From IMG/VR virus record IMGVR_UViG_2529292836_000013: a stretch of 6,857 nucleotides of DNA. One strand, 5' to 3'. This DNA is from a virus. Lineage: Duplodnaviria; Heunggongvirae; Uroviricota; Caudoviricetes. This document shows positions 1 through 707 of the stretch, piece after piece; the first letter of the stretch is position 1; each line of letters starts with the position of its first letter. A program made the position numbers and the translations under genes. Below the pieces are notes generated by a model, which was not told where the DNA came from, made no database searches, and saw nothing but the letters and a program-made list of their open reading frames with translations.

Positions 1-37
1 CCTGCAAGACGTTTAACATTAATCTGAGGCCATATCT

Positions 38-97
38 ATGCGACACATAGAGATTAGCCTCTTACGGACCGAAAGGTCAAGGAGAAGCAGGCTATGA
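38..97 (+). CDS. Short mok-like reading frame overlapping the hok start
   Basis: ATG at 38 opens a 19-codon frame (MRHIEISLLRTERSRRSRL) whose TGA stop (95-97) overlaps the hok ATG (94-96). This fits mok-coupled hok translation, but it is much shorter than plasmid R1 Mok. Confidence 0.3.
   Translation: MRHIEISLLRTERSRRSRL
51..80 (-). promoter_or_regulatory. Candidate sok-like antisense promoter (minus strand: -35 TTGACC, 18-nt spacer, -10 TAATCT) firing leftwards across the mok start
   Basis: Reverse complement of 51-80 reads TTGACC-(18 nt)-TAATCT. It sits inside the mok/hok leader, where the hok/sok family places the Sok promoter. Confidence 0.45.
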
Positions 98-249
98 AGC
101 AGCAAAAGGCGATGTTAATCGCCCTGATCGTCATCTGTTTAACCGTCATAGTGACGGCACTGGTAACGAGGAAAGACCTCTGCGAGGTACGAATCCGAAC
201 CGGCCAGACGGAGGTCGCTGTCTTCACAGTCTACGAACCTGAGGAGTAA
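94..249 (+). CDS. hok: Hok/Gef family type I toxin (HokD/RelF-like), 51 aa
   Basis: Translation MKQQKAMLIALIVICLTVIVTALVTRKDLCEVRIRTGQTEVAVFTVYEPEE is a near-exact match to my memory of Hok/Gef toxins. AGGAG lies 9 nt upstream of the ATG. It is below the size cut-off of the supplied ORF track. Confidence 0.9.
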   Translation: MKQQKAMLIALIVICLTVIVTALVTRKDLCEVRIRTGQTEVAVFTVYEPEE

Positions 250-317
250 GAGACTTGGCGAGGGAGAAATCCCTCGCCACCTCTGATGTGTCAGGCATCC
301 TCAATGCACCCGCACTT

Positions 318-343
318 AACCCGCTTCGGCGGGTTTATTTTAT
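318..343 (+). terminator. Rho-independent terminator ending the hok transcript (7-bp stem, UUCG tetraloop, T-tract)
   Basis: aaCCCGC-ttcg-GCGGGtt followed by tattttat. Stem 318-324 pairs with 329-335. Confidence 0.75.
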
Positions 344-707
344 CTGTAAATATTTTTATAAAAATAATGCCCACACACAGCATAAAACAAAAAGTATCAC
401 AGATAAAAAAGGAGCGTAATGTGCAGATTTGTTGTTTTCCATATTTACTCACTTTAACATAATCAATATTGATATGGTTGTTGTTTCGGTGGTTTCAAAC
501 GAGATGTTATGGTGATCTGGTAAAATTGCATAACATTAAAATTTAATTTATCTAATCGCTTTTAATAATAAGCGTTGTGTTTATCCCAACAATCTGTTGT
601 TTGACTTTTATTCCATTAATGTAGGGGCTTTACACTGGAACCAGTTTATTTATACTTTATACGCCAGCCTGAACAACTGGCACCTGCTGCGCCAGCAGAG
701 ACAACCG

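Follow-up and report, generated by a model that had tools for sequence, protein, structure and literature searches.

A probable hok/mok/sok type I toxin-antitoxin cassette with a 19-codon mok frame in the nin region of a Qin-like Escherichia coli prophage

Results

The hok locus and its prophage neighborhood

The DNA analyzed here, referred to as the window, is a stretch of 6,857 bp from a virus of the Caudoviricetes (IMG/VR record IMGVR_UViG_2529292836_000013). At its left edge lies a hok toxin gene, which is preceded by a leader with a short mok frame and a putative minus-strand promoter and followed by several 3' RNA elements (Table 1). Over its first 600 bases, the window shows 100% identity to several complete E. 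coli chromosomes, and the missing upstream DNA was taken from one of these, NZ_CP024257.1 (E. coli O25:H16 F5505-C1). The same allele is found in E. coli ATCC 43886. The locus in this genome is named L001, and the window corresponds to L001 7001-13857. In the RefSeq annotation of L001, the CDS alone is annotated, as hokD, and neither mok nor Sok is present; among the matches listed, no RefSeq feature lies under the hok leader (window 1-93, L001 6906-7093). Other ORFs overlapping this region, such as those at 54-227 (minus strand), 255-419, and 286-462, were set aside as mechanically derived, because they lie inside conserved RNA or the CDS of the cassette.

Table 1. Coordinates of the cassette and its predicted elements. 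Positions refer to the window; negative positions lie to the left of its first base.
Feature	Position	Strand	Details
hok/mok/sok cassette	-110 to +343	+	about 450 bp
hok mRNA leader, 3' two-thirds	1-93	+	RF01794 match; predicted mRNA 5' end 74 nt left of the window
Predicted Sok antisense RNA, 5' part	1-45	-	start near 44-46, runs leftwards, end about 27 nt outside the window
Sok-target hairpin (predicted)	26-63	+	mok SD GAGG 26-29, mok AUG 38-40; closed by GAGGC/GCCUC (mok SD/dcb stem)
mok leader frame, short allele	38-97	+	MRHIEISLLRTERSRRSRL; 19 codons; ATG 38-40, TGA 95-97; stop overlaps the hok start as AUGA
Putative Sok promoter	51-80	-	-35 TTGACC (80-75), 18-nt spacer, -10 TAATCT (56-51)
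hok Shine-Dalgarno sequence	79-84	+	AAGGAG; 9 nt before the hok AUG
hok toxin gene	94-249	+	ATG 94, TAA 247-249; 51 aa, MKQQKAMLIALIVICLTVIVTALVTRKDLCEVRIRTGQTEVAVFTVYEPEE; named HokD in RefSeq
TACG motif at Tyr47	232-235	+	TadA A-to-I editing motif (Tyr to Cys recoding); inside CUACGAA 231-237
3' UTR hairpin	256-279	+	GGCGAGGG/CCCTCGCC; 10 bp, GAAA loop; -20.5 kcal/mol, z = -6.1
fbi (fold-back inhibitory) element	299-311	+	CCUCAAUGCACCC; complementary to the mRNA 5' end GGGUGCUUGAGG
Intrinsic terminator of hok mRNA	318-343	+	stem-loop 318-335, AACCCGC-TTCG-GCGGGTT; 7-bp stem, UUCG loop, U-run

The 7 kb upstream of the window in L001 contain dicA/dicC-like regulators, a YdaT-family gene, genes of the replication region, an IS21-family element, and a pseudogene. 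Downstream of the cassette follow genes for DUF968/YdfU, RusA, a Q-type antiterminator, two tRNAs, a holin, YdfR, and a lysozyme, a set which therefore identifies the host element as a Qin-like lambdoid prophage. This prophage is decayed. In the early region, L001 4089-6055 is occupied by the IS21-family element ISEc62 (istA/istB), at a distance of about 870 bp upstream from the start of the hok mRNA. This element is followed by the pseudogene, which has an internal stop (L001 6115-6402). According to the annotation of the identical RefSeq genome, the DUF968 (YdfU-like) gene at window 988-2036 carries a frameshift, and several neighboring genes are partial. Just upstream of the hok promoter, at L001 6657-6836 (window -343 to -164), there is an unannotated, very hydrophobic ORF of 59 aa (MKNALQFLFVAFWLFVSCMPIIF...), for which no Pfam match was found.

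Several other features were observed further downstream. The tRNA genes at window 3385-3460 and 3561-3635 are located just downstream of the Q-type antiterminator gene; the first was classified as tRNA-Met (anticodon CAT) by ARAGORN and as tRNA-Ile in RefSeq, the second is a tRNA-Arg (TCT). Positions 4334-4523 (plus strand) show a full-length match to the Rfam sRNA STnc100 with 132 bits (cut-off 47). The match is situated in the interval from the tRNAs to iraM, and a partial pseudogene annotated on the other strand overlaps it. The iraM gene itself (4549-4884, minus strand), encoding an anti-adapter protein, belongs to the prophage late region and is located on the strand opposite to its neighbors.

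The hok gene product and the Tyr47 codon

The hok ORF recognized in the initial annotation was corroborated by a family search. The deduced peptide matched Pfam HOK_GEF (PF01848) with 78.6 bits (cut-off 22, E = 2.6e-22) over profile positions 1-42 of 42, and it has the residue C30 as well as Y47 in a TACG motif, in agreement with membership in the Hok/Gef family. Matches to the NCBIfam Hok subfamily models were below their strict cut-offs (45 vs. 73 bits). The identical protein in identical genomes is RefSeq WP_000813256.1, HokD, and one residue, V46 instead of A46, distinguishes it from the HokD peptide that is commonest in the family.

The V46 allele changes the K-12 sequence UUACGAA to CUACGAA, which we take to be the anticodon-loop heptamer of tRNA-Arg2. 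A stable tRNA-like hairpin presenting the TACG motif of Tyr47 was considered but not supported for this allele, as the local fold of -2.8 kcal/mol was no better than that of shuffled sequences. Editing at the aligned Tyr position has been reported for K-12 hokD (PMC5630033), and the Tyr47 codon of the present locus may likewise be subject to A-to-I editing.

The hok mRNA leader extends beyond the window

The left edge of the window cuts the cassette 74 nt into the predicted hok mRNA. Left of base 1 are the first 74 nt of this mRNA, the hok promoter, and roughly the final 27 nt of the predicted Sok RNA, which include its terminator. A search of the window alone with Rfam at the gathering threshold gave no hok/sok match, because the leader is cut; with an E-value threshold, positions 56-157 of the model RF01794 (sok) were aligned to window 1-96 with 35.1 bits (E = 3e-06), flagged as 5'-cut. 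The initial annotation had proposed to extend the window leftwards and to apply a hok/sok covariance model. With the upstream DNA of the identical genome, RF01794 matched in full length (model 1-157 of 157) at L001 6926-7096, i.e., window -74 to 96, with 100.8 bits (E = 2e-23), and only this extended leader surpasses the gathering cut-off of 59 bits. According to the start of the model, the hok mRNA is predicted to begin at about window -74 with GGGUGCUUGAGG. A conserved -10-like sequence, TAGAAT, is present 7 nt upstream of the first base of the model. A simple promoter scan did not list the hok promoter, which by sequence is even weaker than the Sok promoter described below.

The Sok antisense RNA and its promoter

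The initial annotation had also described a good minus-strand promoter within the leader. The hexamers are exactly those reported and stand at the position homologous to the sokW promoter of Stx2 phages, but on sequence alone the attribute good was an overstatement: only 8 of 12 positions agree with the consensus (5/6 in the -35 and 3/6 in the -10 region), which is modest, and a consensus promoter scan listed no Sok promoter in this region. Support for the putative Sok promoter comes from homology and not from the promoter scan. Its -10 hexamer is the positional homolog of the sokW -10 region TAACCT, and replacement of the latter ('pro-less' construct, primer YO-421) abolished antitoxin protection in phage Sp5 (Takada et al.; PMC8621323).

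From this promoter an antisense RNA would run leftwards across the mok start and out of the window, as had been anticipated. By homology, the predicted Sok RNA matches the annotated 71-nt sokW of phage 933W, and a northern blot probe spanning the homologous region detected sokW RNA (PMC8621323). Folding of the antisense RNA, another check that had been suggested, showed that the predicted Sok sequence (L001 7045-6968, minus strand; about window 45 to -27) forms a hairpin followed by the U-tract UUUUCUCU (z = -3.8).

Two alternative folds of the hok mRNA

The minimum free energy (MFE) structure of the 418-nt RNA reaching from -74 to 343 had an energy of -174.9 kcal/mol (z = -8.0). The proposed search for 5'-3' fold-back complementarity was successful: in the MFE structure the first 12 nt of the mRNA pair with the fbi element just upstream of the terminator, an element that the initial annotation had overlooked. 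For the duplex of 5' end and fbi, an energy of -21.5 kcal/mol was calculated, a value that was reached by 0 of 500 shuffled 5' ends. In this closed fold, the mok SD sequence is paired with the upstream box GCCCCAGG, and the hok start region 89-103, which includes the AUG and is located just downstream of the hok SD sequence, is paired with positions 217-232.

When the last 53 nt were removed, the MFE structure of the resulting 365-nt RNA switched. The 5' end now pairs with AAGCCCC to form the tac/ucb stem, which is a consensus helix of the Rfam model, and the mok SD sequence is freed. The Sok-target hairpin (-14.1 kcal/mol, z = -5.8), which also corresponds to an Rfam consensus helix, forms in the 3'-truncated fold and presents the mok start. 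Thus, both a full-length tac/fbi form and a truncated tac/ucb form are predicted, corresponding to a closed-to-open switch like that described for the R1 hok mRNA (PMC9841398).

Two further 3' elements had been noticed before. The perfect 8-bp hairpin reported at 257-278 is present, and its stem extends to 10 bp. It probably represents the protective 3' stem-loop of the processed mRNA; in the case of R1, mutation of the last 3' stem-loop of the truncated mRNA led to loss of function (PMC9841398). The UUCG-loop terminator was also confirmed and was the sole terminator-like site obtained from a scan.

Conservation of the cassette among relatives

A pattern scan of IMG/VR yielded 120 loci. Usable leader instances numbered 110 in these loci and, with L001, 111 in total, of which 101 are unique. 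The 101 relatives are highly conserved between about -110 and +337, and beyond these limits the conservation breaks down. These sharp homology ends indicate an autonomous cassette within mosaic flanks. Of the base pairs in the L001 MFE structure, 94.9% are kept as standard pairs in the 101 unique relatives, compared to 36-42% when the partners were slid by 1-3 columns. Two-sided compensatory changes were found at 16 pairs, including two in the 3' UTR hairpin (261/274 AU/GC/GU and 264/271 GC/AU/CG), and the pairs between the 5' end and fbi vary mostly from G-C to G-U. We regard this covariation within the subfamily as modest, that is, supportive and not strong, because the relatives are close (mostly >90% identical) and the search pattern fixed the 5' end.

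More diverse hok loci were collected from plasmids by tblastn. Loci L125 and L126 were left out because an integrase gene or an IS interrupts their leaders, and L128 consists of a mokC fragment flanked by IS elements. In an R1/F-type locus (L124) and in a locus from a plasmid of Atlantibacter (L127), the 5' end is a different one, GGCGCUU..., and a correspondingly altered fbi box, AAGCGCC, lies about 50 nt after the stop codon, as in the window. As judged from these sequences, each family keeps the complementarity between 5' end and fbi at the same position. The 5' end of the window locus can also pair with R1-type fbi boxes via G-U pairs, and cross-family duplex energies discriminate poorly; strict compensatory specificity between families is therefore not claimed.

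At 89-91% identity, the cassette was also observed in E. coli, Salmonella, and Klebsiella on several hundred plasmids, which have sizes of about 90-115 kb and are for the most part non-mobilizable. Among the plasmid records carrying it, 456 of 571 are predicted to be non-mobilizable, and these plasmids may be phage-plasmids.

The extent of the conserved block bears on the question whether hok is regulated autonomously. In K-12, hokD lacks its own leader and follows relE at a distance of 71 nt. By analogy, hok in the window could be co-transcribed as the tail of an upstream operon, the antisense promoter being a chance match, and the small hydrophobic ORF outside the window would offer an upstream gene for such an operon. 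However, the hok gene has a complete leader with its own conserved -10-like TAGAAT, and homology among the 101 relatives starts only at about -110, so that the upstream gene lies outside the conserved unit. In addition, the antisense -10 hexamer coincides with the very region of sokW whose replacement abolished protection (PMC8621323). The initial annotation had already argued against a relBE-hokD arrangement, and rightly so: the K-12 sequence can be aligned only up to a point about 20 nt upstream of the hok ATG, and the annotation of the preceding 7 kb in the identical genome L001 contains no relBE genes. We consider an operon-tail origin of hok transcription most unlikely.

The mok frame occurs in three configurations

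A short mok-like frame overlapping hok had been reported before. Such a frame is indeed present, but it is a 19-codon allele and not the usual mok of about 70 codons. Its start codon is preceded at a distance of 8 nt by the SD sequence GAGG, and it stays open up to the UGA that overlaps the hok AUG, so that by sequence it reaches the hok initiation region, from which translational coupling is predicted. For R1, mok translation is needed only as far as the hok SD/start, and stop codons beyond the hok start are harmless (PMC9841398). The 19-codon mok is compatible with this published requirement.

Among the 111 loci, three spacings between the ATG codons of mok and hok were found. In 89 loci the distance is 57 nt, which places mok in frame with hok and creates an N-terminally extended Hok of 70 aa, as in the annotated mokW. 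A distance of 58 nt in 6 loci results in an R1-like, out-of-frame mok of 68 aa, and a distance of 56 nt in 13 loci, including the window, in the 19-codon mok with its UGA on the hok AUG. In all 13 short-mok loci the same 76-nt leader is found, mostly within unrelated flanks, which speaks against a recent inactivating lesion.

The different frame nevertheless raises the question whether the cassette is a silent relic, in which the net -1 indel that shortens mok to 19 codons, weak promoters, or prophage decay leave hok untranslated, resulting in a lack of toxin-antitoxin activity as in the inactivated K-12 hok loci. The mok frame is unlike the 70-codon in-frame and 68-codon versions of most relatives, and the promoter scan listed neither the hok nor the Sok promoter. 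Selection on the cassette may be relaxed in a prophage with an IS21 element and pseudogenes, and several chromosomal hok loci (hokA/B/C) were reported to be unable to give post-segregational killing (cited in bioRxiv 10.1101/2025.08.07.668861). On the other hand, tac, ucb, the mok SD and AUG, dcb, the hok SD, an intact hok ORF, fbi, and the terminator are all present and foldable, and the IS is located more than 850 bp upstream of the cassette. The short-mok leader is unchanged across loci with mostly different flanks, unlike a fresh inactivating lesion, and mok ends exactly on the hok AUG, far enough to satisfy what R1 needs. We therefore consider a silent relic quite improbable and the cassette probably functional, because the 19-codon mok agrees with the R1 requirement and the short-mok leader is unchanged across the loci.

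Discussion

Interpretation and proposed mechanism

Taken together, we assign a probability of about 0.9 to the interpretation that the locus belongs to the hokW/hokD subfamily of type I toxin-antitoxin systems, that its hok/mok/sok cassette is intact, and that it lies in the nin region of a Qin-like lambdoid E. coli prophage that is defective. By homology to R1 hok/sok and Sp5 hokW-sokW, the relatives for which northern blots, rifampicin chases, and toxicity assays are available (PMC9841398, PMC8621323), we infer its transcription, mRNA processing, Sok instability, translational coupling, and toxicity as follows. The weak promoter outside the window would give rise to a stable mRNA of about 418 nt whose 5' end is paired with fbi. 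In this closed form, the mok ribosome site would be sequestered by the upstream box and the hok start by the end of the hok ORF. Slow 3' trimming would remove the terminator and fbi and allow the 5' end to re-pair with AAGCCCC, and the resulting tac/ucb stem would expose the mok ribosome site and the Sok-target hairpin. As long as the prophage is present, a short-lived Sok RNA of about 70 nt transcribed from the minus-strand promoter would pair across the mok start, block translation, and mark the duplex for RNase III. Once Sok is no longer made, ribosomes would translate the 19-codon mok, terminate at the UGA on the hok AUG, and start hok translation. The 51-aa Hok peptide would then enter the inner membrane and kill or lyse the cell. 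The biological role of the cassette might be prophage retention and/or earlier lysis upon induction, the latter as reported for hokW-sokW.

The three mok configurations in near-identical cassettes are in line with a lack of selection on the Mok peptide as such, and this natural variation supports the view put forward in the literature that it is the translation of mok that counts and not its product. One might speculate further that the 19-codon AUGA mok represents a distinct, selected coupling mode, i.e., strict termination-reinitiation instead of read-through unfolding, and that together with the V46/CUACGAA change it adjusts Hok output or toxicity in a manner different from that of hokW and hokD. 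We rate this proposal as unlikely. If true, three mok configurations in >90%-identical cassettes would constitute a natural experiment on the evolution of leader-peptide coupling.

Comparison with known hok systems

The locus type is already known: hok/sok loci are common and among the best-studied antisense-regulated toxin systems, and a 91%-identical prophage copy has been characterized experimentally. Beyond its correct annotation, the present locus therefore matters little. The closest relative with experimental data is hokW-mokW-sokW of the Stx2 phages Sp5/VT2-Sakai and 933W. The nucleotide identity to 933W/VT2-Sakai, where hokW, mokW, and sokW are annotated, is 91% over window 4-321, and the leader, the position of the putative Sok promoter, the hok ORF, the 3' hairpin, fbi, and the location in a prophage are common to both. 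HokW-sokW has been established experimentally as a toxin-antitoxin system of type I; upon prophage induction sokW is removed, HokW accumulates in the inner membrane, and lysis is advanced (PMC8621323). Several differences exist. Whereas mokW is a 70-codon in-frame extension of hokW with its ATG 57 nt upstream, a 2-nt deletion and a 1-nt insertion lead to the 19-codon mok and the AUGA overlap in the window. The Sok hexamers read TTGACC-18-TAATCT here and TTGCCT-17-TAACCT in sokW, and the C-terminus of Hok is FTVYEPEE instead of FVDYESEK. The 933W locus is situated near the right end of the phage genome, whereas the present one is found in the nin region upstream of RusA and Q, and 933W lacks the UUCG terminator sequence.

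The hok/mok/sok (parB) locus of plasmid R1 and flm of F have the same architecture and the same set of RNA elements as the window locus. For the R1-type mRNA the same two-state fold is predicted, with an fbi-closed full-length form and a truncated form opened by the tac stem (PMC9841398), and the AGCCUCUUAC box as well as the position of the Sok promoter are shared. In contrast, Hok of R1 is only about 37% identical to Hok of the window, and the complementary 5' end and fbi sequences are GGCGCUU/AAGCGCC in R1 and GGGUGCUU/AAUGCACCC here. The R1 mok comprises 70 codons and is out of frame with hok. R1 hok/sok is plasmid-borne with demonstrated post-segregational killing, whereas the window locus is prophage-borne.

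K-12 hokD (relF) and the window are nearly identical in a stretch that begins about 20 nt upstream of the ATG and includes the hok ORF, the 3' hairpin, fbi, and the terminator, with V46/A46 as the only difference between the proteins. Further upstream the two are unrelated, and in K-12 relE replaces the whole leader including tac, ucb, mok, Sok, and the Sok -10 region. The prophage neighborhood is the same as in K-12 Qin, with the dicA/ydfA side, DUF968/YdfU, Q, and the holin-YdfR-lysozyme genes. On the basis of this alignment, K-12 has a truncated version of a locus whose intact form is seen in the window. Of 5426 complete E. coli genomes, 3459 contain the intact leader type, in up to six places per genome, and 1204 contain the K-12 relE upstream stretch (relE 3' end and relE-hokD spacer). 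The K-12-derived name hokD hides the fact that the present allele, unlike K-12 hokD, keeps the full antisense control region.
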